DNA from: Gnetum montanum
Lineage: Eukaryota > Plantae > Gnetophyta
Assembly: GCA_015680685.1 (NCBI GenBank)
Contig: MNCI01000673.1
Coordinates: 1-64,000 of the forward strand
Length of the DNA stretch: 64,000 nt
Direction of reading: 5' to 3'
Below, piece after piece: positions 7,501 through 64,000 of the stretch (the first letter of the stretch is position 1; every line of letters starts with the position of its first letter). The notes under the pieces are model-generated. The model was not told the origin of the DNA, did no database searches, and saw only the letters and a program-made list of their open reading frames with translations. Both the position numbers and the translations under genes were made by a program.

Positions 7501-10004
7501 CAAACCATGTAGTTAATGTGATGATATATCTAAAATTCAAAGGTTCCTATACATAGTAGCCACATAGTAGGAGGACATCCAGTGGCTGATAGTTGACCTT
7601 AAGAGTATCTCAACACTTTGCATGAAACCTGCTGAAAGCCTAACATGTGCCTACGTGGAAGGCATGGATGAATTGAAAAAGGTTCATCACCAACTCTTTG
7701 ATGATGCAAATGATGATACCTTTAGGAAAGAGTTGAAAATTTCCAAAAATTTTAAACAAGATCCCCTTGACTTCAAAACTCTACCTACTAGTATGGAATA
7801 TGCATTTGTGAAAAATGAGAAGCTGGTAATAATCAATGCAAATCTTGCTCTTGAACAAAAATAGATGCTACTAAAGGTGGTAAAAAAATGGTGAACATTC
7901 TTTGCTTAGTAATATCCTAAACTCATAAGGATTGATCCTAGGATATGCCTACATTGTATCTACACTGATCCAACCATGAAGCCAAAGAGGTAGCTACACT
8001 AGTGGTAGTTGAATTCCAAATTGAAGCAGATCATCAAAGAGGAAATAAAAAATCTCCTCAAGGTGGATTTTATCTATTCCATTGTAGATAGTGAGTGGGT
8101 TTGCCTACTTGTGATTGTGCCAAAGAAAGGTGGCAAGTGGCAAGTCTCCATCAACTTCTAACTATTGAATATGGAAACATTCAAAGATCACTTTCCATTA
8201 TCATTTTTAAATCAAGTGTTAGACACTATATCTAGGTATTTCTATTATAGCTTCTTAAATTATTATAGTGACTAAAACCAAATTCATATTGCATGAGAAG
8301 ACTAGGCCATAACGACATTCATGAGTCCTTGGGGAACTTTTTCATATCAAAAGATGCCTTTTGGCCTGTGCAATGCTCCTATAAAATTCTAATGCTTGGT
8401 CTTGAGCATTTTTTTAGCAACAAATCGATAGCAGGATGGAAGTCTTGATGGATGAATTCTTTACCTATGGGGCTACATTTGAGCAAGTCTTGGATTGCCT
8501 TGAGAAAGTGCTTAAAAGGTGTATGGAGATGAACCTTCAGCTCAATTGGTAGAAGAGACATTTGATGATCTAGAAGGGTATTGTACAGGGGCATAGAATT
8601 TCTCAGGAAATGATTAAGGTAGATCTTGAAAAAATTAGGGCTGCCCATCAACCAAAAACTATAAAATATGTTCAATAATCCCTTAGATACACTAGTTACT
8701 ACTAAAGATTCATAGAAAATTCCTCTAAGATCACAAAACTATAGGTCAAACTGACAAAGAAAGATGCTTCATTTTTTTAGACCAAGAAATGTGAAAATTT
8801 ATTCCAATAGCTAAAGGAAAAACTCATAGAAACTCCAATTCTATGAGCACCAGACTAGTCTAGACCATTTCACATCATGAAAAATGCATCAAATTATGCC
8901 TTGGAGATCTTACATAGCTAGACAATTAGAAACACCCTTATTGCATTCACTATGCAAGTCAAATCATTGTGGATGCACAGCTAAATTACACCACCTTAGA
9001 AAAGGAATTGATTGCCATGATGTTTTCCTTTGAGAAATTTAGGCACTATGTGCTTGGATACAAGGTGTTCATGTACATGGACAACAATACAATTATCTTC
9101 CTAATGAATAAGCCAATGGTGAGCCCCCATGTCATATGGTTGCTAGTGATCTTGCAAGAATTCAATATTACAATAGTAGATCAAAAGTAAACTAAGAATG
9201 TGGTTGCTAACCACTTGTCTTAGTTGAGATGGGACAACAAAGAGGAGGAAAGCCCTCTTTCTGATTAGTTTCCTAATAATCTCCTCTTTGCCAAGCCTAT
9301 AACTAAACAATTGTCCACTAAACCTAAATGGTACAATGACATTCTCATTTATCTTTACACTAAAGAGATGCCACAAGAGCTAGATTGCAAGAAAAAATAA
9401 TAGTTTTTTCACTAGGTGAAACACTTCATGGAGATCTATAGGCACCTCTACAAAGTGTGTGCTTATGGTCTGGTTCATTGGTGTGTCCTTGATGCTGATC
9501 AACTATGTGTTCTCCAAGACACTCATGAGGGTCCTTGTGGGGGCTAGTATGTAGGGAGATGCATAGCCATTAAGATCCTAATGGTAGGATATTATTGACT
9601 AATGCTTTTTAGAAATGGTCATCAATATGTTAGCTCTTGTAAATGTTGCCAATGCGATGGTGAAATGAATGCTAATATGGAGGATCCTTAACAATGGATC
9701 CAACCACCGGAACCCTTCAACATCTAGGGCATTAACTTCATGGGTCCCATCATGTCCATGTCAAATCGAAAGGCATACATCATAGTCGATGTTGACTATT
9801 ATACAAAATGGGTAGAAGTAGTAGTGGTCATCAACTGTACATCTTCTACTATTTCTTAGTTTATACAATAGAATGTTGTAAATAAGTTTGGTATGCCACA
9901 TGCATTACTTTTTGATAATAAAACCCACTGTACATGCACTATGTTTCAAAAGCTCATGAAACATTTTGGGGGCTAAACATAAATTAACAACACCTTATCA
10001 TCCC
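4526..10004 (+). pseudogene. Degenerate gag-pol (gag, protease, RT, RNase H, 5' two-thirds of integrase) inside element B
   Basis: ALLDLGSDVN protease (~7090), MPFGLCNAP (~8355), NASNYALG and NYTTLEKELIAMMFSFEKFRHY (RH), HEGPCGG..CKCC (~9525-9650), GINFMGP, ending at LTTPYHP; collinear with element C. Confidence 0.9.
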
Positions 10005-37865: not shown

Positions 37866-38629
37866 TGATGAGGATTCCAATACTCTAAGAACAAAATTGA
37901 AATCCCAATCTTCAAACTTGCAAGATGAATTACAATAAGAAATGAAAATAGTTCTTTCTTCTTGAAAAATCATGATATAATTACAAGGCTGAAAAAATTT
38001 TTCCAAAGTATTGATAAGGGCTTAAGAGAATCATACTCACAACCCCTCATACAATAGACAACCCACAATGGCTGAAAGCCTTCTAACATGAAACATAATG
38101 GAAGCCCAATTTGAGCTCAACCATTTCTTCTTAGCTCTCTTTCAAAATTATCTCACAATTCACTCCTCTATCCCCTCTTCAAATGAAAGGCTTGGATCCC
38201 ATCTTCCAAGTATTCCTATCTTCCCTCCTATTTGGAATTCAAATTGAAGTTTGTTAGAATTTGTATGAGACATCTTAAAGAAGTAGGAGATGTATTCCCC
38301 AAAATAGTCAAATCTTAGACAAGACATCTTGGAGTTAAGGGATATGTCTTAGATCAGTAGGATACATCTCTCTTAAGTTTTCATCAATCATAAGAGACAT
38401 CTTCCTTCATCATGATACATCTTGGCCTACCTAGAGATGTCTTAACAAAGAGAACTATAAAAGAATAAAACTCTTCCCAGAATTCGCACAAGTGTAATGT
38501 ACTTCCAATTACCTTCTCTTGTCTCTTGGACATGCATATCCATACAAAAATAGACACACCTAAGATATAAACAACACACACAAAAACATAGTTTATGGAT
38601 GTTACATGGGCTAGGTAATTTCCTCATCA
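37866..38629 (-). repeat. 3' LTR of element D
   Basis: Homologous to 43529-44336; perfect 8-bp terminal inverted repeat; PPT adjacent. Confidence 0.9.
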
Positions 38630-41600
38630 TCTCTCCCATCCTTAAATTTGAAACTTGTTTTAAGTTGGATAAACACTTGGGATAGCATTAAGCCCCCAAA
38701 AAGCCAAATTATTATCATGCATCCAAATTTCATTTTTTAGGCTCTTCATCATTCAAATGAATCATTTATTCATGCACCTTTTGATTCCTTATGCTCCTAG
38801 CTTTCCTTACTTACAACATAATAGATTCCCTTGGTGACTTAAATGGGCTTGGATTAGCAAGTACATTTTTAAGGATCTCTAAACTATCCTCCAAGTTAAA
38901 GGTGCACATCTTGCCATGGTAATGGCTTAAATCTTAGGCTCTCCTTGCCTAAATGAAGCCATGCATAATCTCCAACATCAAAGAACACCTTTCATTTTCC
39001 CAAGATCTTTGTAGTACCAACTTCTTTGTCCTTGCCTTCATGTTTTATCTTCACTTGCTTATGTAAGTCTTGCATTCCTTCACAAAATAATAGCTAACAT
39101 AAGCACAATCATAAAATTATTTCAAATCATAAGACATTTGAGAGGCATAGCCATAGTTTACCTCAAATGGGATATTCCCAATTCTAGGGTGATAAGAATT
39201 ATTGTAACTAAACTCATCATGTGATAAAAACTTTTCCCACCTATTGGGCTAATTCTCACAAAGATACCTCAAAATTTTAAGTAATGATTTATTTACAATT
39301 TTAGTTTGGCCATCAATTTGTGGATGATAGACACTAGAAAAAGATAATTTGGTACTCAAAATTTTTCATAGTGACCTTTAAAAATGACTTGTAAGTTTAA
39401 CATCTCTTTTACTTATAATGTTTGATGGAAGATCATGTAATCTTATGACATTTTGAAAATATAAGTGAGCAACATGAGATGTATCATTACTTCTTTTACA
39501 AGGAACAAAATGGACCATTTTAGTGAATTTATCAACAACAACAAAAATAAAATCATGACCATCTTGTATCTTGGGAATCCCACAAATAAAATCCATTGAA
39601 ACACTTTCCCATGAAGCATTAGAAATGGGTAAAGGTAAGTAATGTCTAGTAATACCTTTACCTCCCTAGAATTTTTGACAAACAACACACTCTCTAATAA
39701 ATTTATTTATGTCATTTCTTATACTTGGCTAATAGTAGCTCTTTCCCACAAGTTCATAAGTATTTTTCTTACCATTGTGTCCAACCATACTATAATTATG
39801 ATTTTCTTCCAAAATTTTTGACCCAAAATCATATTGTTTTATACATATTTTATTATGTTTGAAGACGATGCATTGTTGTAGATGATAGTCTCTTCACCTA
39901 TCCATTTTACTAAGTAATGGAGCCTAAAGATCCCTCTAAACCTCTTCAAAATTAGCATCACGAGAATACAAGTTAGGATTTCAAGTCGTTGTACTTGAGC
40001 ACAAGAGTGATTCACAACATGGATTCTTAAAAGAGCATTTGCTACTACATTTCTTTTCCCACTTCTATGTTTCAAAATGAAACTCTTGCAATTATTCTAC
40101 TAGTTTCATATGTTTAGTGCTTAATTTTTTTGAGAAATTAAAAATTAAAGTGTTCTATGATTAGTAGATAAAGAAACTATGATCCTAGTAATTAATCTCT
40201 CTAATGTTTAATGGCTTGAAGCATAGCATATAACTCCTTTTCATACACACTATAATTTTCTCTAGATTTATTTAATTTTTTGGAAAAAAAATGCAGTTGG
40301 CTTATCTTCTTGAGAGAGCACACCTCTACTAGCAAGCCCACTTACATCTACCTCAACTTTAAAAAGTTTTGAGAAGTATAGAAATTTCAAAACTAGAGCA
40401 ATACAATTTTTCTCTTTTAATTCTTGAAAAGATTTTTCTTTCTCATTATCCCACATAAAGGCTGAATTTTTCTTAAAAAAAGTGAGCATAGGACATGCAA
40501 TAAAACTAAAATTCATAATAAATCTCCTATAGAAGCCAACTAAACCAAGAAAGAATCTCATCTCTTCCACATTCGTAGGTGAAGACCATTCTTTGATTAT
40601 CTTGATCTTTCTTGATTCCATCTACTTGGTTCTTAGAGAGAACATGACCTAGGTAAACAATTTCTCCTTTCATGAAGTGGCATTTCTTGGAATTAATCAC
40701 CAATGCAACCTCTTGTAACTTGGAGCATATCATCTTCAAATATTATACATGGTCCTCTTCTTTAAAACTGTACACAAGCATGTCATCAAAGAAAATAATA
40801 CAACATTTACCAATAAAATCTCTTAAAACTTCATTCATGAGCCTCATAAATGTGGTTGGAGCATGGGTTAGTCCAAAAGGCATGACTAACCACTCATACA
40901 AGCCATCTGGTGTATTAAGGGTTGTCTTCAATTCATCTCCCAATCTAATCCTTATATGATGATAATAACTTTTTATATCAATTTTAGGAAAAATCTCAGC
41001 ATTGGCAAGCACATGAAGAATGTGATCCATCCTAGGAATAGGAAATCTATACTTGATAGTAATTATATTGATAACGCTAAAATCTATGCACATCCTTAGT
41101 TCATTATTATCTTTCTTTAGAACAAACATAGCTAGAATGACACAAGGAAAGATGGATTCCTTAACAAAACCATTAGAGGGTAATTCACTTTCTTGCTTAA
41201 TTCTCCCATTTGATTTGAAGTCATGTAATGGGCTCTTTCATTTGGAATTATAGCTCCTAGTATGAAGTCTATTTGGTGTTGTATGGATCTCATTGGTGAA
41301 AGACTGTCCAATTTTCCCTTGAAGACATCTACAAATTCCAATGCCAAAGATTGCACCACTAGAGGAAGTTCATTTGTAGTCTCCTCTTGACTTGTTGTAA
41401 GTGTTGACATGATAAAAAAAACCATGCCCAGCCTCTTCATGTTCTTGTAGGTACTCTTGCTCACCAAACAAGATCAATGAAGCATTAACAGGGATATTTT
41501 CCTTGTACTACTGCCAAGTCATAGGAATGAGTTCATGTATGTCATATTCTCTTAGGATAGACCAAACATTTCTTGTATCACTGAAATAAGCCATATTGAC

Positions 41601-43528
41601 AAAGTTCCAAGGTCTTCCTAAAATAACATCAACATAATTAATCAAAAGGATATCACAATGTACCTTGTCTCTAAAGGATCCAATTTTAAAGGATAAAATA
41701 CATCTCATTTTTACCTCTTGTAAATGATCCTTGGAAAGCCAATGGAATATATAGGGTTTAGGATGTGAAATTTTCTTCAACCAAAGCTTAGAAATACTCT
41801 TTGAAAAGATCACATTTTCTTGAGCACTACCATCAATTAAAATTTGTATCCATTTACTAGTATATAGACACATAGCTATAATCATAAAGAGCATCTTTCT
41901 TCTAGGATCCTCATTGATATTCACTTTTCTCATAAACATAAAAAAATTAATTTTAGTGATATCTTCAATCATTGGTGCATGAGGATTACCTTCATTAGAG
42001 AATTCTTTCTTCTCTAAGGTCTGAACCTCCTTACCTTTGGAGATCTTCTTCTTACACTCCCATTACTTATGTCTCTTTCCACCATAATTGAAGCATTAAA
42101 GTTTGGATGCATAGTCATTTTCTTGTCCCCCTTCATTCTTGAGGTAGTCCTTCTTGAGCTTCTATTGCTTCTCCCTTGTGTCGTCTTTGGCATTTTCCTT
42201 CTCCTTGGCTTCCTTCTCATCGTAAGAAGCTTTGGAGTGTTTGCCTTTAGAATATTTGGCATCTCTATTATATCCTTGGAGTTTCTTCTTAGTCTTAAGA
42301 TCTAATTCAAAAGTCTCATATAATGTTTGTGGCTCATAGAATATTATCTCTTTTTGGTATTCTCTCTTTAATCCTCCTTGGAAATTAGATGCTTGTTCAT
42401 AATCATCTCAAAGAACTTTTGCAAGTTAGAAGGCTTTACAAAAATCCATGTAAAGGTCTTTAATACTCTTATTACCTTACCTTAGCTACTTCAATTTTTG
42501 AATTACTTCTTACGCATGCTGGGTCTTCTCAAATTTTTATTTAAGCATGAACTACATCAAGGACCAATCTTTGATGGAAGTTCCATTACTTACAAGGTAA
42601 GAATGGCTTTATTTTTCCCATTAAATTTATGTCATACCATCAAGCTTGGTTTCAACATATGAAACCTATTGATTTTTTTCATATCTTCTAGTTCAAAGTA
42701 CTTTTTTAAATTCTTAAGCCAAGAAAGAAATGATTTAGTTCCTTCCATCCTATTAAACATCTTCACTTTCACATAAGACATTTTAGAGGCATGCCTAAAA
42801 GCCCTTACAAGAGTAATCTCTAATCCTTTCCTTTGGTTCCATTAAGGTCTAGAAGTAGATTCACTGTTTCTTCATCTTGGAAATATAGACCTATGGGACC
42901 TTGACCCAAAAATTAGAGAATGAGGGTTTTCATCATGGTCCTCATCTTTGCCAATGTCTTCATTCCCAAAATGAATGTCATCTTAAAGAGTAGGCATCAA
43001 TTGTTTCCTTGATGAAGAAGCCCTTGATGAAGGAAACTTAGAGTTGACATCTTGCCTAGTTGCCCTTGATGTTGGAGGTTGATCCTTCTTTTCTTTAAGC
43101 TTTCCCATTCTATTCACAAGAGTCTAGAGTACATCCTCAAGTCTTCCATGTTCTTGGATAATCCCTTGACTGATTTTTGCTTAGGTGCCATGATCAAGTA
43201 GACCTAAATGAAAAATTAAACAAATACCCACAATAAATTGCATAAGTATTAAAAGTGATCACAACTCAATATTTAGCATCCAAATAATTCCCACAAATCC
43301 TAAGTAGGTTAATGAGTATCTTAAAAATAGGATTCCTCACTACCCAATTCACTTGATCATACCAATTGACCAAAAGAAGGCTAATTAAACCCTAATCAGG
43401 TATTACAATTAACATCAATAAAATTGCAAACCAAAATAAACTTGAACAAAATGAATTCTTGTGAATTGTTGTAGTGGATTACTTTTCTTGAGGTAATTTT
43501 CTTCAAATCCTATGCTATGCTACCAATC

Positions 43529-47224: not shown

Positions 47225-50200
47225 ATGTAATAGGGTTTTATATAGGAATGGTTGACTAGATTGACTAGTTCATTCCCATCCATGTCTGCAATATTGAATG
47301 CTCTATTTTTGTAGGCCTTCATGATTAGGAAAGGCTCTTCCTAGTTAGCTAAGAACTTGTCTGGATGTTCATGGATAGCTTTGAGAACCAGGTCTCCCTC
47401 CTTAATCTTCCATTTGTTTAGGTCATGATGATGTTGTTGTTTTTGCCTCTCTTAGTATGGCTTAATGTGAACATGCATTCGTGCCCATTACTCTTCCACT
47501 AAATCTAGGTTAATAGTACATAGCTTCTTATTCTTCTCATCATTGATGAGGTTTGATAATGTCACTCTAAGTGATGAAACCTGCATTTTGAAAGAGAAAA
47601 TAGTTTCAATACCACAAACTACGCTATACAAGATTACACTAATTGTAGTTCGATAGCTTATTCTGTAGGCCCAAAGTACATGAATAGGCTACTCATGCCA
47701 CTTGCATCTGCTATCATTAAGCATATTTTTCAACAAGCTTATGATGGCCTTCTTGCCTGCTTCAACTTGTCCATTGGCTTAAGAATAGTATAGTGATGAA
47801 AAGAAATGCTTGATAAATAGATCTTGACAAAAGGCTTTAGTTTCCTAGCTGTTAAATTATGGTTCATTATCTGTGACTATGATCAAAGGTATGTCAAAAT
47901 GGGCCACTATGTTAAGTATAAATCTATAGACTTGTTGAGATGTTATTTTTCTTAGGGGAATAGCTTCAACACACTTTGTAAAGTACTCAGTTGCAATGAT
48001 AATGAAACTATGCCCTACAAAAGATTTAAGCATTACAGGTACAACGACGTCCAATACCCACTATTGAAATGGTCAAGTTATTGAGTAGTGTATAACTTAG
48101 TTGGTGGCATGTGTATTAGGTTGCTATGCCTTTGATAGGTGTCCCAAGTTTTGATCTTCTATAGGTAGTGTATTTTCATATAGGGCTAGTAATATCCTAG
48201 TCATCTAATTTTAGAGACCATGGCTCTAGGTCCTATATGCCCTCCACATACACCCTCATCAACTTGCTCCAAGACTATGCTGGCTTCAATTTTTCCTAAG
48301 CACGCTAAAAATATGTCATCATAGGACCATCAACATAATGTATTATCTCTTATAATGATATACTATTTTGATCTTTTATGTACAATGTCCTTTTGAGAAG
48401 TAGTTAGGCTTTGTGAAGATTAACCATGCATTAGGTAAAACTTAATATTATCATACCACTCCTTTTGAGGAGTGATGTTGACAAAGGCTATGGAATCACT
48501 CCTAGTCTTCTACGTGGGAATAGTATAGTTCATGATTAAGGAAGGTAAGTTGCTAAACACATCACACATCATATTTAGGTCTAAGGATGAAATGAAATTA
48601 GCTAACATGTTCTCAGTTCATGGTATATGTTGGATATAAATGTTTGTAAATTATCACATTCGTTTCTTACCTAGGTCATAGTAGGGTTTCAAATGTTTGG
48701 CTTTACACATGTAAACCTTGAGTACCTCATTAACCATAAGTTGTGAATCACCTTTTATTATCAAATGTTTGATTCCTTCATCACAAGCTACCATCATTCT
48801 CCTAATTAATTCTTCATACTTTGCCATATTGTTGCTACATGAGAATTCAAAATGATAGGAGAAGGGTTGGATTTCACAAAAAGATGATGTTATGATAGTA
48901 GGAGCACTAGCCCCATGGATAGTTGAAGCTCCTTCAAAGTGCATAATTGCCTCATAGCCCTCAAGTACTTTGGTAACAATGTTGACATGATTTTCAAGGA
49001 ATTCAAGATCTATGGTTGCATGGTCTTCTACTAGTGAAAAATTAAATGCTTGAGAGACATAATGGAGATTAAATTTGGATGTAATGACTTTTCAATACGC
49101 TATATGGATAATTTCATAAATATTCATTGGTATGGTCCTAAGAACATCATCCTTGAAAATAACATTGACCTAGCTCCTAAAGAGGTAGTGTTGTCACTCC
49201 TTTAATGAGAAGACTAGGGCTAGACAATACTTCTCCACCTCAGTGTATTCAATGCATGGCTTAGGTAGTATATTGGTAACTTTTCTCCATCATATTGTTT
49301 TTGATAGAGTAGAAAGACAATGGACATATCAAAGATTGTAAGGCATATGTAGAAATTTTTATCCTTTTGTGGTGGATAAACCATGGGTAATTATGCCAAC
49401 TCTTACTTAAGGTTTTCAAAGCCTTATTGGCATTAAGTTGTTCACTCATAGTGAACTCCTTTCTTAAGCAAGTGCTGAATGGATTGTAACTTATTTGTAA
49501 GCCTAGAAATGAACCTAGGAATAAGTTGTAATCTACCTTGAAGTCCCAAAAGCTTCTTATGATTGGTTGGTATTGATAGATTGGATATGACCTTAACCTT
49601 GTTAGGGTCAACATATATTCCTACTTCAACTACTAAAAATCCAAGCATGTTAACAATTTTGACACTAAAGACACATTTCTTTGGGTTAAGCCTAATATCA
49701 TACTAAGGCATCATTTCAACATGAGGTCAAGATCATGTGCATGGTCATGGGCCATTTTGGATTTAATGACTATATCATCCACATAGTCATTAAGTAATCC
49801 TAGCATATAATCACTAAAGATATACATCATGGCTCATTGATAAGTGGCTCATGCATTCTTTAGATCAAAGGACATCATGGTGTAACAAAAGGTTCTCCAA
49901 GGGGTTATGAAGGTCATACAAAGTTGATGTTCCAGGTTAATCCTAACTTTTTTATATCCTAAAAACCCATCCATGAAGAATAATAAGGCATGTCTAGCTG
50001 TAGTATCAATAAGTTGGTCAATATTAGGCAAAGAAAATTCATCCTTGATGGTTTCCTTATTTAGTTACTTCAAATCATTATAGCTACATATACTCCCATT
50101 TTTCTTAGGGAGCACCACTATGTTGGACACCCATTTCATGTAATCAACAACTCAAATGAAACTAGCCTAATATAGCTTTGTGATCTCATCACAAACTACC

Positions 50201-50691
50201 ATGACTAAATTTGGTCTAATCTTACAAACATTTTACTTACCTAGTTTCATACTAAGGTCAAGTATGATTTTAAGTTGCATCAAGCATGGGTGAAGACCTG
50301 GCATATTTTCATATGATCAGGTAATCACCTTATTGTTGTCTTGGAGGACCTTGGTGATATCTTGAACCTACTAAGGTTTTAGTGAGAAACTTAGTTTTAG
50401 CATTTTATCCTCACGATTATGTGTCATGACAAGAACTGTAACTAGAGAATCCTTGGCAACGTCACCAACCTCAAGGTCAAGGGTTTAAACTGGATTTTTA
50501 GGGCATTCTAGAGGTTTCTCTATCAATGCTATGTGGTCAATGAGGCTCTTAGAATTAATATTTAAGTGATTGAGATCAATAAATTGTTCAACTTCACCAT
50601 GAGGTCCACTTAGGTTCAATGGAAAATGGATCTACTTCTAAGTGTCCATACTCTAATCCTACATATCAACCATAAGCACATTAAGTGGCAC
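47225..50691 (-). pseudogene. Degenerate RT-RH-aRH-INT of element E
   Basis: *SYENMPGL, PNIDQLIDTTA.HALLFFMDGFLGY..MMSFDLKNA, YVDD; aRH HFEGAS..CSNNMAKYEELI..KGDSQLMVNEV (48654-48944); integrase IIIATEYFTKCVEAIPL, N*EEPF. Confidence 0.92.
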
Positions 50692-51029
50692 CTATGTAAA
50701 ATGATCAATTAATATCAAAATAATGAAAAATACTTCAATAATAATGCATGAATAATCAAAAAAACATTGCATCAATGGTCAAACAAGGTTTAAATAGGGT
50801 GACTAAGGTTACAAGAGGTAGGTGAAATAAACATGATGAAACAAAGGCCAAACAAGGTCAAATGAAGGGCAAATGATAGGTAAAATGTGGTCAATATTGG
50901 TCAATTAGGGTTAGATTTTGTTATTTTTAGGCCATAGGAATCCATAGTGGAAGATCACAAGGTTGAAAGATGAGTTTGGGCACTAAATGATGGTGTTTTG
51001 AGGTCATTTAAGGTAAAAAAAATCAGGCC

Positions 51030-53290
51030 TTTTTTGAGCTTCCACATTGGACAACATGGGTGGGATGAGCCCTAGCATGGATAGGATGGAAATGTGATTT
51101 TATAGTTTGAAAATGGTCATTTTTGGAGTCCTGATGATTTGTATGGTTAGTGAAATGAACTGTGGATGTAGATTTGGTTCTGGTGTTGATTTGATCCTTT
51201 AGAAGCCATAAAGACAACTTGGAACTACCATCCACACTAGGACTATGTTGGTCAACGTGGTCCCAATGTGGGTACATGGAGAAATTGAGTTTATAGCCTC
51301 CCAAGGTTAAAATTGATGTTCTATTGGCTTTCTAGGGTAGCATAGGGTCATGAGGTTTGGAAATAGTGACTATGAAGCCAAAATATGCAAATAGAAGTGG
51401 GTTTGGGGTATTTCCCTCTAGGGCTATGCTAGCTATCATAGCTAGGGGTGGTCCTAGTGTGGATGAGTAAAATATGGTATTTTTATGATTAAATAAAGGT
51501 TAAATTGTAGCTACATTTAGGGTTTTGAGGTTATATACTCCCACAATTGAGTTTTGAGGCCATTTGGTGGAGGTTATGCTGGTAAAACCTATTTGAAAAT
51601 CCAACTACATTAGAGCCATACTAGGCAGCATGGTTCTAGTACCCTGAAGCATAGTTACATTTGATTTTTGCTTCTTAGTGAATTCTACAAAAAATTTACA
51701 AAGTTTTCAATATTTTAGGATCACTAGTATTCATGGTCAAGGTTTAGGCTTGTAATTGTCAATGTTGAGGGTTGTTTGAGTCTTAGCATGGTCATACCCC
51801 CTTAGACTATGCTATCTAGCATAGTCCTAGTATGGATGAGGGGGTATGATGAGTTTTTTATCATTTGTTAACCTAATTTCTAGGTTTTTATGAACCCTAA
51901 AGGATTTGACAAAGTTCTGGGTTTCCCAAGTTAGATTTTTTGTTGTTTGAATTGTTGTAATATTGGAAAAATTGATCTTAGGCCTTATCCACACTGGAGC
52001 CATGCTGACTAACATGGTTGGAAGTGACCCCAATGTGGATGGATAAGGCATGATGTTTTTATGACTAAAATAAGGAAAAATTGTAGTTGGTTTTAAGGTC
52101 ATGATGTTCTAGGCTTACCAAGTAGAGTTTTAGATATCTTGGTGTATTATGAAACTAGTAGAATTGGTCAAAAACCTCATCAACATTAGAGCCACATTGG
52201 ACAATGTGGCTCTAGCCTTCTTCAACATGGGTACACTAAGGTTTTAACTTTTAGGTGGTTTTGGTGCAATATCAACAAAGTTATTGAGTTCCTAGTATTA
52301 TTGATGTTGATGGAAAGAATTTGATCTTGAAATTGTTAATTTTAAAGGCTTTTTTATGGCTTTTGTAGTCATCCCCCTCTGGCTATGCTAGCTAGCATAT
52401 CCCCAACATGGATGAAGGGGGAATGAAAGGTTCTTACCATTTTTGACTCAATTTCTTGAGTTTTGGTAGTCGCTAGAGGCTTAAGTAGGGTTTTAGGGTT
52501 AGAGGGATGAGTTTTGAGGTTGACTTGACCCATGTATGGCTTTTCTATTAATTTTCTTAGGGTACCCACAAGCTAGCATGGGTGAGGGCTTCCTTAGCTT
52601 GGGAAAGGAGGGTAACATGAAATTTGACTTATTTATTATTGATTTTTGGTTATAAAATACTTTGGGAAGTCATAGTGGCCATGATATGTCAATTTAGAGG
52701 TTTTTTAATATTTTACAACCAAACCCTATCCAACCATGTTAAAGCCATGTTGTCTAGTGTGGTTGGGGTCTTCTCCAGCATGGATGCAAGGTTAGAGTGG
52801 AGTTTTGACTAAATTTTCCTAGTTTTCTTGACATTTTGGGATAAGTAGGAATCTTGGGAAAATGTAGAGGCCAAAAAATGCAAGTTTGAAGGTCTTTTAT
52901 GGCATGTTATGGCCAAACCCCTACCATCCATACTAGAGCCACATTAGCCAATGTGGATGGGATGCATCCTAGTGTGGTTGACCCAAAACTAATGATTTTT
53001 AACACTTACTGTAGGTTTTTAGGGGTTTTGGGAACTATTGGAGGCTTCTACTAGGGTTTTAGGCTTTGCATATTATTTTAGAGTCAAATTGATGCCTAAT
53101 TGGTGTTTGGAAGTGTCATTTACCATGGAGCCAAAATAACAAATTTTGTTAAGGGGGTTAGATTCCTCAGTGCTTGATTTTTTACAATGTGTTAACCTTT
53201 AGTTTTTAGTTTTGGAATAGGAGGTTTTTAGGCTTCAATGTGTTGAGAATGGTGGACAAATCCACACTAGATCCATGCTAGCTTTATGGA
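51030..53290. repeat. Array of palindromic cores at ~190-bp period with diverged spacers
   Basis: Dyad centres at ~51050, 51251, 51432, 51624, 51815, 52008, 52200, 52391, 52572, 52753, 52947 (partial 53281). Confidence 0.85.
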
Positions 53291-53419
53291 GTTATTAGTG
53301 GATTTTGGTGGTGACTGAAATTTAGAGTTCATCACAAGGCTTTATGGAGCTTCAACCTGAGTGTAAATGGGGGTTTTGGTTGTGGATTTCATTGCAATGG
53401 GATTTTTAGTATTTTTATT

Positions 53420-56400
53420 AGGAGGCACCTAGTAAGACCCATCCAAATTTAAATGGTGTTTTCATTTTGAACTTCCCACCTTCTCAATGTAGCTAGGATT
53501 TTCCCCTTTTGCACTCTTAATTCACTATGAGTTGAGTAAGTGACTTTAGGAAAGAGGTTTTTAATGGATATGCATAGGTAGAGAGATCTTGAAAAAATCA
53601 TTTTATGAAACTCATTTTCTCAAGGTAGTGCATCTATGGAGAGCTCTTACAATATTTTTTACTTATACTCTACTAGTTCTCAATGTTGCTTACCTATTCT
53701 CCCTTAAGGAGTAGCATTGGCATTTAGAGCTTGGAGATTTTTGGAGGTTTTTGCATTGTTTATGAAGATGTTAAAGAGGAGATTAGTCACAAGCAAGAAT
53801 CCTACCTTGGAGGATGTAGAAATTATAGCCAAATGATTGTGACACTTGCCACAACCCATATTGGAAGAAGGATCATCTTCAATGACTCCTAGGTACATAA
53901 TTCTTGGTCATTTTCTCATGTGTTTTTACAATTTTCTTACTTAGGGCCTAGGTGTTTTGGCTTGTTTTGGTTGATTTATGACATGAGATCTAATTTTCTC
54001 AAAACTCTATGTTAGATCTAGGCCATGTTTATGAGGCTTTGTTGTTGCTTTGGTTTTGGGATTGGTCTATGTCAAATTATACATTTTGTTCCAGTCTTTT
54101 CTATGTGTTTTTTGTAGCTTCCCACCAAAAAGGAACACAAATTTTGTATTTTTTTTATGTGAAAACAACTTAAAATTTTCATTTTCTATGGCCATGGGGT
54201 TGTGGTACATTTTTCAAAGGTCAAAACAATGGTTGAACCATTGGATTTTGACTTATGGTGAATTTTCTGTGAATTTTTCCATAAGCTAGTTCATAGGGGT
54301 TTTTTAGTGTTTTGTTATTTTTTATGCTATGTTTCCAATTTTTAATGTAAAAATAGATAATAATTTTTGGTTTTTTTGGATTTTTAATTTTTAGTTTACT
54401 ATTTATTAGTTCAAATGGCTATGGAATCACTGAATTCTGATCCATAGTTACTTTTTGTGAGTTTTTTTTTGTGGATTAGTATACAGTGAAATTTTTAATT
54501 TTTATGGTTTTACCCCTTCAAAACTTGGTAATGTTGACACTTAGAATATTTTTTCCAAACAACATCCTAGGTTCTTGGGGATGTTTAAGACTATTTGGGG
54601 GGTTTGGCATCAATTTTGAATGTTTGAAAATTTCATTGATGTTTTTTTCAGTAATTTACTGTTAAGTCTTATTTTAGGTTTTAAAGGTTATAAGTGGTAT
54701 TCTTTTGTCTAGTCTAATGTGGTAACATTGGTATTATGGTTGTAGTTTTAGTTATCTCTAATTTTTTTTAGTAATCATTAGGTTTTAGTTGTGGTCATGT
54801 AAATTTTAAATGGTTATTTTTATGTTGTGCAAGGTCTTTCTCAAACCCATCCTGATGGTGAATGAGTTGGTGGGACTCTTGTGTTGTATTCATACACTAG
54901 GGCCCAACACTTCACCTCCGCATATGGTGTTGGAGTATGATTCATTATTTTTTAGGCTAAGAACAAAGAAGTTCCTAGCCTTTTTGTTGGAAAACTTTAG
55001 TGTGATGGTGTGGTCACACTTAGCTTTCTGCATAATAGCTATTATCATGAAAACCTTGTTACCTCATTCTACTAGCTTGATCATCAAATTTATTGTTTAA
55101 GATCTTGAAACACATGCCTAGGATGAAATACTTGATGGAAAGTATACTAGAGGTACTTGTAAGCTATCCAATATTTGGGACATGCTCGAGTTCAATCAAT
55201 ATAATGCCAATAATACATTGTTAGTCAACCAATGTGTCAACACATTATTTTACAACCTTCCTAATATTGTCTACCATGTGGAAGGGTAAACATGATTTTG
55301 GCTTATACATTTGGTTTAATTATCAATCTCATTAGGTTATTTGGTTTTAATAGCCTTTTTCTTGGATTGGCATATTTGTAGGTATAGGTTAAATGATCAA
55401 GGGCTCATCAAGGATGTCTAGTTCTTGCCCTTAGCTCAAATAGCATTGCAAGTCTTTGCCAAAGCACCATAGTGTGGCTCATAGTGGTGGAGCAAATCAA
55501 AGTTGACCTTGGTAGATACACCACACACTATGCCCAAGCCTACCAAAGATGCATAGCCAATGGGATGGCTCTTGATTGGTGGGATAAATCATATCTTGGT
55601 GTAGAGGTATGTGTATTCCTTAGGACCTTCTAGCCACCTTCCTCAAGTAGACAAAGCAAGGATGTGTAGTTTCATTTTAGTCTTTGTTTTTATTTTTTCA
55701 TTATGCAATGTTGATGTTTTCTAGTTATATCGTTATTTGGCGATCTTGGCTTTGATTGTTTTATTGGTTCTAATGGTGTTGTCCTAAGTGTTGTTTCTAA
55801 TTCATTATGTTTAATACTTATTATATTACTTTATTTGTTTTTTCCTTTGGATGTTGTATGATGTACTTGTTCCAAAGCTAACAAGTCATTTTTGTTGTGT
55901 TGTAGGGGCTACATCACCATTCTTCGTCACCGTAATTTCTTTGGGATGTGGTGAGAAGATAGTTATCCTTAAGTTTGCAAGGTGGAGGTGGCATAGAATT
56001 AGTTAACTAGCCAAGCACCCAAGGAGATCCAAGCAATGACCACCAGCATAGGATTGCTTGACTTAGTCATGGCTCCTACTCGAGCTATTCATACCTCTAA
56101 GATGATGAACATCATCAACTCCATTAGCAAAGGAGTGAAGAAATTCATCGCTTAGGTCCATGGTGTGCCTATCACCTTGGTCCTCAATGAGTCTATCATT
56201 TGTGATCTCTTTGGCATCCCTTGTGAGGGGATGAACATTGCCACCAAGCCAAGGAAAGATGCACACATTGGAAGAAGGTGGAACAATGGCTAAGTACTTC
56301 TTGCAGCCATTCTAGATTGTCCTTGACCAATTGTCAAGTCATGGAGGTGAATGAGATGTACCCATTATTCCAGTCCCAGGCTTTTCCTAGCTCTTATCAT

Positions 56401-58460
56401 AGAAGAAGATGAAAGGCATTGAGCAAGCATGAACCATGAAACAGTTCCTCACAAAGGATTCTCAGTTCAACTGGGCTACTCATTTGGCTTTTGGGCTACA
56501 AAGGGAGATCCTAAAAATTTGGGAGAATCTTGACATGATAAACCACATGCATTATGCATTCTTTGTAGTGTATCTTAGGATGTTCATGGAGTTTCTAGTG
56601 GTGTAGAGGGATGGATGATTAATGTTCCAAGATCCATACCAGCTTTCTAATCCTGGGGGTAAAACATATCTTTCCAACCATGTAGGCTTAGAACCCACTA
56701 GAGAAGATTGGGGAATTGATGTTCATTATCACTAAGAATTTTAGTGATGTACATTATGCTTCCCTTGACAGCATGGGGATGCAAATCCAAGTTTTCCAAG
56801 AGAATGTTGAGAAGGCCAAGGAGTTTCACACTGAAGTTGATGGAGTAGCTACATTGAAGTTGAAGAGGCTTGCAATTGAGAAAGTAGCACCAATTATAGA
56901 GCAGCCTACGAAGAGGATTCTTGTGGCTAAACTTAGCCAAGTGCATCACTTGGTCACAAGTGCATCTTATTTATTCTATCCTTAGATTATCTTTGCATTT
57001 ACACTTCATGTTATATGGCTATATTGTTTTCTTTTAGCCAAAATCATGCTAAGTCATTCTATGTTTTAGTTCCATTTTTCTTATAGACAAGCAACAAGAA
57101 CTGGTAGCCTAAGTAGTAGTAGCAGAGGTAGAGAAAAGGTGCTTAGAGGAGGAGGTGCTACAAAAACATGAGGATGAGGGATTATGCAATGCCACATTGA
57201 ATGATCTCAATGCTATATTTGATGGCTCATAGCTAGATGAACCCATTGTTATCATCTCAAATGATATCCCAAGTGCTTATGAGCTTTGTTTTAATGTGTT
57301 GTATTTCATATTTTCATGTTTAAGCTTGGTTTTAACAATATGGGCTAGAGTTACACCTGTTGCAGTTCCTAAACCTAGTTAGGTACCTCAACCTCTACAT
57401 TCCACATGAAACCATGGGTGGAGGTTTCTAATAAAATGAAGTTCATATGTTGGATTATCATGGATATGATCAATTAGTTGCAATAGGATTTCCCGATGTT
57501 GTTAAGAATCTAAGTTTATCTTTATCTTCATCATTGGTTCATATAGGTCTCATGGTCATGTGATCTTAGTGGTTTAGAATTTTTTTAGTTATTCTTTGTT
57601 GTTTAACATGCATGTATTGTTGGTATATTACTTGTAGTGCCTAAGGTTGGATGGGATTCCAACCATGCCATGGAGATTGATGCTCTACCTAGCTTGCCAC
57701 TTGAGGTGGAAAGTGTTTCATGAAAGTTATATGAAAAGGCCACTAAATGTACATTTTCATTTGTAATAACTTTGTTGGAATGCGAATGTTCAAACAAGTT
57801 TCTATGAGAGAGGTTCATGGCATTAAATAGGGAGACTATGAGATAGGTTGAAGTAATTAGAGATCTCTAGGATTGTAAGGGATTCATGGAAGCCCAAGTG
57901 AATAATAGGGAGTCCTTGTAGACCAAAGAGATAAGATGGAAATGGTATTGGAATGCCATTCATGGAAAGATTGCTCTTTCCAAAAAGGTTGCAAAGTATA
58001 AGTTGTAGATGCACCTATTAGCCTATAAGGCTAGGTAGTGGAGGGAGTATTATGCCAAGGTCCTCAAGTCGGGCTGAGTAGAAAAGGACCATGAGAAAAA
58101 GTATAAGGTTGAACAGGAGGCCTATCTTAATTGGTTGTAGGAGGAGTCCACAAAGTGATGCAAGTTGGAGCCATTCATGAAGGGGATCCAAGTAGAGTGT
58201 GTCTATAAACTATTTGAAGGATCTTTAGTGGTGGATGACTTCCCAACTCGTTAGGTTACTATGGCTTTTGGGGATGTAACTATAGCTATGTTTTCATAAG
58301 AGCCACCTATATGGACCAATATTAATGAGAGAAACATCTTAACAGGAATTAATCTCACAAATGTGGATTGGGCCTACATGACCTAAGACCAAATCATCCA
58401 TCATTTAGAGGTTGGTTTTCAAAGATTCATCACAAAGGAAACTACTCTAGAGTCTTCCTA
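53420..58460 (+). pseudogene. Decayed multi-exon gene of unknown function, antisense to element E
   Basis: Purine-rich coding-like blocks (e.g. ORF 56716-56985; KDHEKKYKVEQEAYLNWL) alternate with T-rich blocks ending in TAG acceptors (55905, 57086, 57637). Confidence 0.55.
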
Positions 58461-59245
58461 GGTTTGTTTAATTTTTTTAATTAGTTATATTTTACTTTAA
58501 CTTAGTCTGTGGTTTAATTATATTGATTATTAACTAGCCCTTTGTTGTTATGATTGGTATGGGTACCAGGTGACATCAGCCTTTGTTTATCTATGAGACA
58601 TTTATTGTTATTTTACATTATTGCTACATAGTGTAGTTATGGTTATTCAAACTTTTATTTATTCTAGACATTTGTTAATTGAACTTTCATCACACTGTGT
58701 GAGTTATGGCTATAGGCTATGGACATTTTGGTTATTATCATTATATCTATTTTAATTTGGCTTATACATTCTAGCATTTTTATTTTTATGCATTTCATGT
58801 TTATGTTATGAGTCCATGTTAGGCTCCATTGGTTGGGTCATGTGGTTTTATAAGGTTATTCATTAAAGTAAAAGAAAAATGCATGTTAAACTATGGCAAT
58901 GAAAGGTAGACTAAAGCATAATAACTAAGAATAGATTATGAAAATGTTGCTAGTTTTAGGTTATGGTGGGTCATGTGTTATCAATTTTAGGCCATGGTGG
59001 GTTATGGCTTTTACCAATTTTGGGCCATGGTGGACCATTCATTTTTTTTTAATTTAAGACCATGATGGGCCATGCATTTTGAAAGGGAAGAACAAATAAA
59101 AGTAAACCATAGGTTACATGCTACAAATGCTAAAACAAGGTAGAATAAAGTAATGCAAAAAAAAAATGATGCATGTAAACAAAGGTTAAAAAAAGATTAT
59201 GCTACATGGTTGGTGGGATAAGATGAGAAAATAAGAAACATATGT

Positions 59246-60476
59246 TCAATTGTGCAAGTTTTTCCTAATCTTCAAGAGATTATGAAAGGTGTAGGGTCTA
59301 TGTTGCACAATCTTGTATTCCCTATTTCCTTTGCTAATCATGTTGAAGGGGAGCTCTTGCCATGATGCATCCACAGTTACATTGTTATCTATTTGGGCCT
59401 CTTTTGCTCTATCAGGTCTTTGGACTTCATTTTCTATAGTAGGAGCAGGTTCTTGAAACTCCATCATAAATCCTTGTTCTATGTCCACATTGTTGACCAC
59501 CAAGGGAACTCCACTATCATTATGGACAATTATTCCACCTCCCTCATAAGACAAGTGAATTTCTTGGTGGATGGATGAGCAAATAGCTCATAATTGAGCT
59601 AACCAAAGCCTCCCAAGAATGAGATTTAATTTTAGTATCTCTTCTACCATAAATAAATTTGTTGTTTTGGGGAATGATTCCCCTACTGCAAAGTCCAAGG
59701 AAATTAATCTTTTAACTATAACCTAAGAGCCATTAAAGGATTTGAGAGAAAAAGTTGATGTATGTTGCATGTGCTCTATTATGAGTAAGCATTCAACAAT
59801 GGTGTAGGGTAGAAAGTTAGTGGCTACCTCATCACCCACATGTACCCTATGTACTTTTTATTACCATACTCTTATTGTTATGAAGAGAGGGGTCTTGGTT
59901 GTCATGCCATCTTGGGGGGTTGTTCTTGATTTCACTATTAAAGAACACTAGTGTTGTTGACTTCATTTCTTTCTTAGGTGAAGGTGGTACAATCACCATG
60001 TGGATGGACTCTCCACTAGCGAGGATGCCCTCACTAACAAGAATAGAAGTCAACATCTTCACTAACATCTCATGGTATGCAACAAAGGTTATTATCAATT
60101 CGTGCAAGCTAAGGGATGTATTTTTTTTGTTTTAAAGACTATTTAACCTATTCCATGGCATTAAGAAAGTCCTTATCATTTGTTGTCATTTTTTTATTTT
60201 TGTTCGCTTTGAGTTTCTCCATGCATCCCAATATGCGAACTTTATGTTTAAGTGGTTGTGCCTTAGTCTCTTTCCCCTTTCCTTGTGGTTTGGAGTCCTC
60301 CTATGTTTGGCTACTTAAAGTGGCCTAAGTTTTAGAGCTCATGGGAAAGGATGAAATAGGAGTGGGCTTCAGTAGGCTTACTTCCTTCCATGCCTTGGCT
60401 TTGTTGTTGTATTTGTTCTTGGGTGAAACACCACAAAATTTTGGGTCTCAGCATCTTGACAACAAATTTGGCTAAA
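59246..60476 (-). pseudogene. gag end / aspartic protease of element E
   Basis: HRVHVGDEVATNFLPY (degenerate VDxGxxxNxLP), LKSFNGS, LLGR-W-like, PSTK, continuing into ORF 59246-59554. Confidence 0.65.
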
Positions 60477-60596
60477 TGTCAAAACAATGGCATTTTGACC
60501 ATATTCTATCCAAGTGTTGAGTGTAGTTAGCTCCAACTACCAAATTTGCAAAATTTTTCTACGTGTTAGAATCATGGCACTTTCTATAGATTCACA

Positions 60597-61392
60597 TGTC
60601 ACACTGCATAGTGTAGTGCAACGTAGCACCCTGTCACACTACGTAGTGTAGCATAGTGTAGCACCCTGTCACACTATGCAGCGTAGCATAGTGTGGCACC
60701 ATGTCACACTACGTAGCATAGCGCAGCGTATCATCCTATCATGCTGCATAGTGTAGCGCAGCATAGCATCCTATCATGCTGTGTAGTGTAGCATAGTGTA
60801 GCACCTTGTCACACTACATAGTGTAGTACAGCATAGCACCCTGTCATGCTGTGTAGCGTAGCACAACATAGCACAGTGTAGCATCCTATCACACTACGTA
60901 GCATAGCACAGTGTAGCATCCTGTCACACTACGTAGCATAGCACAATGTAGCATCCTATCACACTACATAGCATAGCACAGCGTAGCACCATGTCAAGCT
61001 ATGCAATATAGTATGGAATAGCACAACGTAGCACAAGTGTCAAGCTGTGCAGTGTAGCACAGTGTAGCGCAATGTAGCACAAGTGTCAAGCTATGTAGTG
61101 TAGCATAGCATAGCACACCTATCCAGCTATGCAGACAACATCCCATGTCCTGCATGTAACATGGGACAAGTAGAGTAGACAGCATCCCATGTTCCACATG
61201 TAACATGGGACAAGCATGGCAGATAGTATCTTGTGTCTCTCATGTAACACGAGACGAGCATAGCAAATAGTGTTCTATGTCCTGCATATAACATGGGATG
61301 AGCATAGAAGACAGTGTCCAATGGCCTATGCATAACACAAGACAAGCATAGCAAATAGCATCTTCTGTCTCATACGTAACATTGGACAAGCC
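60597..61392. repeat. Tandem arrays within LTR of F: ~34-bp units, then ~41-bp units
   Basis: GTCACACTACGTAGCATAGCACAGTGTAGCATCCT-like units, then ATGTCCTGCATGTAACATGGGACAAGCATAGCAAATAGCATCC-like units. Confidence 0.9.
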
Positions 61393-62199
61393 CAATAGCC
61401 AATGTCCCACCTGATCCACATTTTGGGCTAACCCTAGCCCTATAAGTACCCCTACACCCTAGTGTTTTAGGAGAGGCATGGAGGAAGAGAGGGGTTAGCT
61501 TCCATTTTTCACCAGTAAGGTAGTTGGCACTTCCATTTTGCATTTGACACTCTGGCATCTTGAAACTTAGCTCTGTGGCCAAACGAGACCCAGAGCACAC
61601 CACATCGGAAGAAAGGCATAACTACACTACATGGTATACTACAGCCCCATTGCAACCCTATAGAAGATCGCATGGTACACCATGGCTACCAACCCGGTAG
61701 GCACAATTCAACATAGTGAACACTAGACTTCACAACCTGACACCACTAAGGCTATGACTATGCTCCCACTACATCTATTATACATTTGTGTATCTTTTGA
61801 GACTCATTGCGAATTAGCTATTCTCCCTCTTTTGGGGCGGTGCATTGCTGTTCTGAAATTCTGTTGCATTTCTCAAGCATTTCTCTTTTTCATTTAGTGT
61901 AATGCTTGTATTTTCTTACTTTTCATGCATATTTGCATGTTCACGTCATAGTTCTCAAGCTGGGACACCCTACTATGCTCTAGCTTTTCCAGACCTGATG
62001 CCCACATGTAACGTAGTATAAACTCTTCTCACACATGGTCATTTTAACACCATGTAAGTCCCTGTCTAATTGACAAGACCATTTAGGGCATCCCATTTCC
62101 ATTTTCCCTAGCATAGCCCCCACACGAATTTAGGGTTAGGTTGTACGCTCGTGGACTTCTCAGTGTTCCATCCACCAACATTTTTGGACATCACAGTTT

Positions 62200-62217
62200 T
62201 TGTAGCTAGAAGAAGGG
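62200..62217 (+). promoter_or_regulatory. Primer-binding site, tRNA-Asn type
   Basis: TGTAGCTAGAAGAAGGG versus TGGCGCTAGAAGGAGGG, the complement of the plant tRNA-Asn 3' end. Confidence 0.7.
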
Positions 62218-62278
62218 CCTGACCATTTCCATCTCCATTTTTTGATTAGCACTTAGTCAAAACTTTGGATGTTCTAGA

Positions 62279-62640
62279 GAGTGTAACAAGTTCTTAGAGT
62301 GTAGAAAGCTTTAGTGTAGCGATCTTGACAAGCTATAGTGTAGCGAGCGTGGAAAGCTCCAGTGTAGCGAGCATGACAAGCTATAGCATAGTAAGCTCTA
62401 ACGTAGTAAGCATGGCAAGCTTTAATGTAGCAAGTGTGGCAAACTCTAGCATAGCGAATGTGACAAGCTCTAGCTTAGTAAGCTCTAGCATAGCAAGTGT
62501 GGCAAGCTCCAACGTAGCAAGCATGACAAGATATAGCGTAGCAAGCTCTAGCGTAGTAAGCATACCAAGCTACAGTGTAGCAAGCTTTAATGTAGTAGGC
62601 ATAGCAAGCTTCAGCATAGCAAGCGTAGCAAGTGTAGCAC
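62279..62640. repeat. 24/15-bp tandem array in the 5' UTR of F
   Basis: CAAGCTCTAGCATAGCAAGTGTGG-like units; source of the repetitive ORFs 62325-62767. Confidence 0.9.
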
Positions 62641-63437
62641 CAAAGTTGGCCATTTTCACAGTTTTCATACTTAGCATTTTTTCTATATTTTTCCACTTAA
62701 CCATTTTCATATAATTTTCTACTACTACATACTTAGTCATTTTTCTGCAATTTTCAGAGTTAGCCATTTTCTACAAACTGCAACTCTCACAACTCAATCT
62801 ATGAATATGAATTCAGGTTAACCTTCCACATCAATGTCTAACACGTTTGATACCACAATCCAGCCAAAGCATCCTACACAAAGCTACGAACAATATAATT
62901 TTTTTGTGCCAAAATTCAAGCAGGACTACCAGTGGACTACATTCATTTGGAGGCAAATTAGGACTATGAACAAGTCCACTAGAATGGATGGAAGTACAAC
63001 CCCTCCTTGTTTGACATAATCTCACTCACGAAGTCCTACCACTAATTGTTGTTCCAACTCATCTATGCAAACAAGCATGATGCAAGGACAACCTACGAGG
63101 AAGCCTCACAAAAGGAAGAAGATGAGTTTGAGGCCCACTTCGAGCATGAGAGCCCCTTCTACATTGTCTTCCAATGACCACTCCCTAGTATAGCCCCTTA
63201 GTTCAATCCACCCATCCTCTTTGAGATGGTGACCATGTCAATTCATCCTTCCTTTCAAGAAACTAATGCATTTTCCCAACACTATGCTCATGCAGGGACC
63301 ACCTCCCAGCCCCACAAAACTCAAGTATTCTACATCCCACCTATCTTGTTGGTGTCTGTGGTATCTATCCAACCTACTCATGTGTGTTCTACTTTGATCA
63401 CCACACATGTCTCTCAGCCAACACATCAACTAAACCC

Positions 63438-63580
63438 ATCCACTATGATGTTAAACTAGTAACAACTGTTCACTATGACATTAAACTAGAAACAAGCAGC
63501 TACTATGACATTAAACTGGCAATGCCTATCCACTATGACATTAAACTAGCAACAACCATCTGCTACAACATTAAACGAGC
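63438..63580 (+). repeat. 30-bp in-frame-length tandem repeat (about 5 units) in the gag region of F
   Basis: CCACTATGACATTAAACTAGCAACAACCAT-like units. Confidence 0.85.
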
Positions 63581-64000
63581 AAACTCCACAACCAACAATT
63601 TGACCCTATGCTATGCAACCAACACAAGCCCAGCCAATGTAACCAGCTGGCACATCCCCAAGCTTGGATCAAGCATTCCAACTGATCCAAAGCTTGATAG
63701 AGGAGATCAACCGACTCAAGGCTACCTCCTCCAACATCATTAAGGTGGTGGAATTCTATTGAGATGATCCCATAAGTCATATGATACCACCTCTAACTCT
63801 CCCAACTGGGGTCCAACTACCTTAATTCACCAAGTACAATGGTGAAGGGGATCCTAATGCACACTTGGTCATATTTTAATCTGAGTGCCTACTCTTTCAA
63901 GCCTGGCCACATGTAATCATGCACATGTTCCCCATGTCACTCATGGACAAGGCCTTAGACTAGTATTGCATGCTACCCAAGGCCTCAATCTCCTCTTTGG

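Follow-up and report, generated by a model that had tools for sequence, protein, structure and literature searches.

Why should short palindromes recur at near-regular distances along DNA in which the sequence between them has diverged to saturation? The question arose from the original prediction for this locus, which placed eleven palindromic cores in a 64,000-bp stretch of Gnetum montanum DNA (hereafter the window) at centre-to-centre gaps of 201, 181, 192, 191, 193, 192, 191, 181, 181 and 194 bp. All ten gaps were reproduced, with core centres at 51051, 51252, 51433, 51625, 51816, 52009, 52201, 52392, 52573, 52754 and 52948. A deamination-tolerant 18-bp dyad pattern matched 10 times in 50901–53400, compared to a mean of 0.088 (maximum 2) in 500 dinucleotide shuffles; the core missed by this pattern was that of unit 9, where the right half is retained and the left half-sites have been lost. 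Autocorrelation of the region peaked at 576 bp (z = 5.8) and 192 bp (z = 5.1). The array is a genuine feature.

The 576-bp higher-order period, previously noted between units 4–5 and 7–8, proved real and extends over units 3–5 versus 6–8. Alignable spacer pairs were 3–6, 4–7, 9–10, 8–11, 5–8 and 5–6 (z = 4.2–11.1), and the array grew via unit duplication. Monomers alike over their full length, by which a satellite or tandem repeat is recognised, were not seen: TRF did not report the array, and spacers were saturated overall. Four of the window's 11 telobox-like 8-mers fell inside the array (51518, 52486, 52721 and 53052).

Each palindrome was resolved into clustered 9-bp half-sites whose offsets are fixed, with forward copies at −20 and −9 and reverse copies at 0 and either +11 or +21. 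The outer reverse half-site was at +11 in units 2, 5 and 8 and at +21 in the other eight, a difference of one helical turn, so that half-sites are spaced 9, 11 or 21 bp. Position 3 was A in 40/40 half-sites and position 7 was T in all 40. Positions 4–5 carried a CpG-decay signature (TG 20, CA 15, TA 3, CG 1, other 1; n = 40) and positions 6–8 a CHG-decay signature (CTA 17, TTG 12, TTA 5, CTG 4, other 2; n = 40). These signatures support the earlier proposal that the cores derive from an ancestral dyad by CG/CHG deamination, but the dyad proposed was wrong at its third base: since position 3 was always A and positions 2–3 were TG in 0/40 half-sites, its start was not CCG, for which the expected TG or TTG remnants were absent (p about 0.001). 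In one contig from each of two other organisms, 43 extra bases at 53131–53143 read as a full 12th cluster, and the reverse half-site of the partial 13th cluster was visible in a related contig. The structure of three to four half-sites per cluster, the helical rhythm and the host retrotransposon were absent from the original prediction.

Conservation of the cores was judged on transversions, because deamination creates none; the window is depleted of CG (O/E 0.17) and CHG (O/E 0.43–0.50). Within the 576-bp duplication, transversions affected 11/149 cluster columns (7%) and 72/409 spacer columns (18%; p = 0.002). The difference was p = 0.066 for half-site columns alone, and gaps numbered 2 in clusters versus 18 in spacers (p = 0.12). 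Over all pairs, inner 18-mers showed 6.8% transversions, while identity across all 45 spacer pairs was no better overall than for shuffled sequence (47.9% versus 46.8%). The expectation that spacers are more diverged than cores was borne out, and equal divergence of the two under mutation bias, set beforehand as the result that would speak against it, was not found on transversions. This pattern suggests that selection maintained the clusters during the family's mobile period and that they later decayed, like the rest of the window, through methylation-driven deamination.

A new finding is that AA/TT recurs through the mostly unalignable spacers in a common, phase-locked rhythm of 10.1 bp, to which G/C runs in antiphase. 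With ten spacers stacked on the cluster centres, the amplitude of AA/TT/TA (WW) dinucleotides was 109.6 versus 32.4 ± 9.3 in shuffled sequence (equalled in 0/200 shuffles) at a best period of 10.0–10.2 bp, and the rhythm consisted almost wholly of one-strand T-tracts (TT 89.7 versus AA 10.0). It persisted whichever anchor was used and in each of two six-spacer sets of lower relatedness, SS dinucleotides peaked half a turn off WW (4.5 versus 9.3), and the period of the whole array peaked at 10.09 bp. Phase was coherent between spacers (p = 1e-4; six spacers, p = 0.013); taken singly at period 10.0, only 5/10 spacers reached p ≤ 0.05. Mean amplitude was 12.6 in spacers and 5.7 elsewhere within the window, about a twofold difference, and 1.2-kb windows of related loci reached ratios of up to 3.6 (99th percentile 2.55, n = 967) compared to 1.4–2.3 for the array. 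The rhythm was stronger in the spacer flanks (13.6 and 10.8 per 100 nt) than in the middle (3.4), extended one spacer upstream of unit 1, and continued in phase for one spacer downstream of unit 11, after which it was gone. Spacer 8 contains words resembling a 10-bp sub-repeat.

Expressed in turns of the period taken from the spacers, the gaps measured 17.9–19.9, each within 0.21 of an integer (18, 19 or 20; p = 0.001, and p = 0.046 for six gaps); they are mutually dependent through duplication and through a half-site-sized deletion in unit 9. Nucleosomal rhythms are weaker near the dyad, and a period of 10.1 bp is nearer to that of nucleosomal than of free DNA. Half-site-free intervals were 131–153 bp long (median 142), and the ~10-bp WW rhythm, the SS antiphase and a length of roughly ~147 bp correspond to the description of a nucleosome-positioning sequence. 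The nucleosome core spans 147 bp, with A/T facing inward and G/C outward at ~10 bp, and natural sequences position nucleosomes weakly (PMC8228248). As far as sequence can speak, the evidence for a helical design of the array is strong.

The array lies between the protease and reverse-transcriptase regions of a decayed Ty3/gypsy-type element of the Tat group, E1, on the minus strand (Table 1). Its PR-RT-RH-INT order with a second RNase H (aRH) between RH and INT is that by which Tat/Ogre elements are recognised; RT-RH-aRH-INT order marks Ogre and Retand (PMC6317226). In a reverse transcriptase (RT) tree of 29 rows, 27 of them chosen from 81 related loci, E1 was placed inside a 99/99 set (18 rows) holding 6/6 Ogre-type and 0/6 Retand-type loci; it fell outside the core Ogre set on a long branch (1.18). 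Distant RT matches (L002–L050) were left out of all analyses. The best matches of the E1 integrase were angiosperm proteins at about 33–38% identity. The CG and CHG depletion of the window is reminiscent of large genomes of gymnosperms or ferns.

Table 1 Positions in the window of the array, its clusters and the neighbouring elements
Feature	Position	Strand	Remarks
Decayed pol of host element E1	47250..50700	−	Pfam RVT_1, RT_RNaseH_2, RVT_3, rve
RT of E1	about 50700–49700	−	followed by RNase H
Second RNase H (aRH) of E1	48839–48594	−	
Integrase of E1	48099–47250	−	
T-rich stretch ending in AG	50690..50900	−	just ahead of RT frame; candidate 3' splice site
Lattice	50890..53120		about 12 nucleosome-sized segments with 10.1-bp AA/TT rhythm (mostly + strand T-tracts), alternating with clusters
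Cluster 1	51042..51080		half-sites −9, 0, +21
Cluster 2	51232..51271		half-sites −20, −9, 0, +11; symmetric
Cluster 3	51413..51462		C-rich left flank; half-sites −9, 0, +21
Cluster 4	51605..51654		half-sites −20, −9, 0, decayed +21
Cluster 5	51796..51845		half-sites −9, 0, +11; C-rich/G-rich flanks self-complementary
Cluster 6	51989..52038		half-sites −20, −9, 0, +21
Cluster 7	52181..52230		decayed −20, then −9, 0, +21
Cluster 8	52372..52422		half-sites −9, 0, +11; homologous to cluster 5
Cluster 9	52573..52602		left half-sites absent
Cluster 10	52734..52783		half-sites −20, −9, 0, +21
Cluster 11	52928..52977		half-sites −20, −9, 0, +21
Remnant of 12th cluster	53120..53143		192 bp past cluster 11
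Partial 13th cluster	53262..53290		two forward half-sites, 11 bp apart
Three-unit 576-bp duplication	51418–51906 vs 51994–52482 (span 51418..52482)	+	65% identity, E 8e-47
Putative antisense multi-exon gene(s)	54810..58460	+	stop-poor frames near 54810–55097, 55950–56950 and 57700–58460, between T-rich stretches
Decayed protease end of E1 gag-PR	59246..59944	−	E 2.3e-14 at 59944–59504 with a profile built on 15 related loci
Second Tat-like element E2, interrupting E1	60424..64000	+	104 low-agreement loose ends at 60424; LTR and gag by eye

The gag-PR frame of E1 stops at 59246, and RT begins about 8.5 kb further along the minus strand, in a separate frame behind the T-rich AG end. Ogre (Tat IV/V) elements share the RT-RH-aRH-INT order and a gag-PR frame that stops ahead of a separate RT frame (PMC6317226, PMC4408406); their protease-RT spacer is a partly spliced intron averaging 274 bp (PMC6317226), far shorter than the interval in E1. 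The extra ORFs described in these reports flank gag-pol on its 5' or 3' side and do not separate PR from RT (PMC6317226, PMC4408406). No PMD protein was detected here. No PR-RT splice joint was found among the matches listed from three partly read RNA runs, where coverage was near zero. Protease and RT were separated by 217–1506 bp in 60/81 related loci versus 9191 bp in E1; of the remainder, 19 had neither a protease match nor as much as 2.5 kb upstream and two had long upstream DNA without protease. The latter (L053 and L063, with 8.2 and 4.2 kb upstream of RT) may be disrupted copies or have long intervals of their own. Spacers were short in L075 and L073, the loci nearest to E1 in the tree. 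Searches of the interval against the 81 related loci by tblastx and blastn gave no match, and a crude detector, which recovers only 4/11 cores here, picked up no similar array among 62 related loci measuring at least 3 kb. Periodic palindrome chains in L097, L128 and L112 were rejected as ordinary tandem repeats of 87, 57 and 201 bp. In an Ogre-side locus (L054), an LTR-like segment at 8660–9440 showed a strong A/T rhythm of 10 bp that gives way to a perfect GC-rich palindrome of 20 bp, possibly a single-unit analogue.

Taken together, we read the array as a lattice, once conserved and now decayed, that lies between protease and RT in an Ogre-like element and is probably composed of nucleosome segments and predicted linker binding sites, and give this reading a probability of roughly 0.58. 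Segments of about 142 bp with the 10.1-bp bending rhythm would each hold one nucleosome, and the clusters, of about 50 bp, would fall in the linkers, where a dimeric protein is predicted to bind them. The binder, either element-encoded (VANC/PMD-like) or a host factor, is possibly methylation-sensitive because the half-site contains CG and CHG. In its most likely role, the lattice would control chromatin from a position upstream of the antisense gene(s) and keep the element readable. The earlier suggestion of protein-binding linker sites at nucleosome spacing is thereby favoured at the level of sequence, through core conservation, the in-phase spacer rhythm and the existence of relatives.

Those relatives are numerous. 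The stretch was found in sequencing runs of four organisms, one carrying only a small share, and the check on other copies suggested with the original prediction returned many relatives of the array in these runs; many related copies of the array exist. Summed contig depth over the array, which is not a copy number, was 49–716 in one run (X1), where near-identical contigs reached 5.5–8.7. Related contigs covered every bin from 50300 to 60560. A contig from organism C joined 50762 to a cluster-like stretch at 53261 with a net loss of 2471 bp, and six further joints shifted by 1, 3, 4 or 7 units; the number of units may vary among copies, or units may cross-match. The four-half-site pattern matched no viral contig and no metagenome contig.

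Contig depth over the interval was far below that at its RT and protease ends, so the interval is either carried by a subfamily or is itself a nested element. The second of these, compatible with any mechanism, regards the 8-kb interval as a mobile element in its own right, inserted in a normal Ogre intron, with the array as its subterminal or promoter region; CACTA elements, for example, have subterminal repeats bound by transposase. We regard this as a real but lesser possibility. It is favoured by the flips of strand T-skew near 50900 and 59050 (T-richness is on the minus strand at either end of the interval and on the plus strand in between, array included), by related-contig depth, highest at 50654–50780 and dropping ~20-fold at 50780, by the short PR-RT distance in most related loci and by the multi-exon-like plus-strand frames. 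Neither an LTR pair nor a convincing terminal inverted repeat with target duplication was present, although decay could hide them. The matches listed include no cluster of low-agreement loose ends inside the interval, unlike at the terminus at 60424, and no well-supported joint skipping the interval, and the contig from organism C carries 50762 directly into cluster-like DNA. On balance the interval is probably integral to E1.

The same rhythm could be read as a curved-DNA barrier, in which phased T-tracts act like the PATCs of nematodes, disrupting nucleosomes against silencing, with the palindromes as protein sites. The dominance of one-strand T-tracts and the intron-like position of the array agree with this, and PATCs of C. 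elegans are similarly 10-bp phased A/T tracts in transposon-derived, intronic, nucleosome-depleted DNA (10.64898/2026.08.08.743475). Plants, LTRs and Arabidopsis, however, go unmentioned in the main text of that report. Within the array the rhythm comes in ~142-bp blocks that are weak in the middle, with G/C antiphase and a 181–201-bp repeat, and its period is closer to that of nucleosomal than of free DNA, all of which makes a barrier of this kind distinctly unlikely.

Serial RNA hairpins in the element's transcript, serving packaging, splicing control or as a small-RNA source, were also part of the original prediction and are weakly supported. Sirevirus LTR palindromes offer a parallel, being likewise GC-rich, repeated and able to fold in a plant LTR retrotransposon; they differ in lying at four loci of a Copia LTR and in lacking sequence conservation, whereas here 11–13 internal clusters retain a conserved motif at whole-turn spacing (PMC4728375). 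On the minus strand, the sense strand of the element, 5/11 clusters folded with z ≤ −2 (best −5.5), compared to 3/11 on the plus strand, but any DNA dyad folds. For left arms, pairing with the right arm of the same cluster was slightly better (p = 0.009–0.15 in six settings), an advantage not significant without the inner dyad (p = 0.10–0.22). The outer flanks of clusters 5 and 8 are complementary, and clusters 3 and 6, which are duplicates, differ on both arms simultaneously; against this, the outer site is one helical turn off the hairpin register in 8/11 clusters. Hairpins would leave the 10.1-bp phasing and whole-turn gaps unexplained, and RNA depth over the array was 0–0.29 in three partly read runs. 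Their chance is about as slim.

Least likely of all is an ordinary old tandem repeat with a ~190-bp monomer composed of 10-bp sub-repeats and decaying neutrally inside a Tat element, since the block duplication, the alignable spacers, the sub-repeat-like words of spacer 8, a common phase that could stem from shared ancestry alone and the presence of arrays in about half of Retand elements (PMC11963269) are set against spacers saturated overall next to inner 18-mers so poor in transversions, similar-looking per-base-type transversion rates in the family (a rough change spectrum), lengths that are still whole turns after alignability was lost, and the homogeneity of the arrays checked in related loci (91–92% matches).

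Returning to the lattice of nucleosome segments and linker sites, its proposed reader was sought in the antisense frames. Protein searches, Pfam and PDB sequences (best E among the latter 0.13) gave no match, nor did local profiles for PMD/DUF7745 (built from six sequences), TRP28 and coiled coils match these heavily decayed frames. A PMD-type extra ORF in E1 likewise gave no match, with frames heavily decayed and the 5' part of E1 lying beyond the window. A by-eye likeness of the frames to PMD and Ulp1 proteases was not confirmed by searches and is not claimed. Poly(A) RNA of less decayed relatives was seen at 57856–57900 (one study; 10 reads in one run and 9 in another) and at 57147 (4 reads, one run), and such relatives may still be transcribed. 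The present copy looks silent in the three RNA samples, since no read 99% alike was found anywhere along the stretch in the three partly read runs; no RNA run was among the listed holders of the stretch.

The closest functional analogy is with the VANC proteins of VANDAL transposons, whose 9-bp target motifs lie in introns and non-coding tandem repeats of these elements (PMC5735166). As in VANDAL, a 9-bp motif (here in 40 half-sites) has been multiplied by tandem duplication in the non-coding parts of a transposon with extra genes; VANDAL, however, is a DNA transposon, its VANC motifs are without CG, unlike the present motif, and a nucleosome-length lattice is not part of its description in that report (PMC5735166). 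PMD proteins, which resemble VANC DUF1985, have been linked to a palindromic motif (10.1101/2024.09.27.615353), and they are common in Ogre extra ORFs (PMC6317226). As no VANC-like or PMD-type protein was found among the antisense frames, the array may be said to work like the VANC system, which is not membership. A stronger version, in which a self-contained chromatin module in the gag-pol intron of an Ogre-like lineage comprises 12–13 rotationally and translationally phased nucleosomes and methylation-sensitive linker dyads with a reader from the element's own antisense gene, is unlikely; if true, it would give retrotransposons a counterpart to VANC anti-silencing in which the DNA itself encodes nucleosome geometry.

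Arrays and antisense ORFs of Tat elements are already known, and their purpose is stated as unknown (PMC11963269). Retand elements likewise carry a non-coding array next to antisense frames (PMC11963269). Here the spacers are saturated and only motif and phase are kept. Membership of Retand was rejected: array and frames lie between PR and RT rather than between pol and the 3' LTR, TRP28 was not matched, and the RT tree is Ogre-sided. In the literature covered (titles and abstract openings, few subscription papers, no supplements), neither a phased nucleosome-and-dyad lattice nor a multi-kilobase protease-RT interval was described for a plant retrotransposon. The array yields exact predictions of nucleosome dyad places, the bound 9-bp site and its helical face. 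Such a lattice could help explain the continued activity of these families in heavily methylated plant genomes. Even without anti-silencing, nucleosome phase kept during spacer turnover would offer a clear example from nature of DNA mechanics under selection.

A related dyad was present in E2, whose LTR-like start contains a 35-bp repeat (60597–60996). This repeat holds 11 occurrences, compared to just 4 in the rest of the window (3.2 on average in shuffles), and the dyad has the same CA-CG-CTG-NN-CAG-CG-derived core as the array, reflecting either a binding word common to two Tat-like elements or convergence of CG/CHG-rich words. Short tandem arrays were also observed in E1 and E2 at 58954–59033 (33 bp), 61140–61391 (44 bp), 62306–62632 (24 bp) and 63436–63582 (30 bp). 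Elsewhere in the window, two decayed LTR-like pairs were noted, one at 37869–38627/43532–44334 (70%) with gypsy-like frames at 40268–42062 and another at 2036–2877/10020–10840 (82%).
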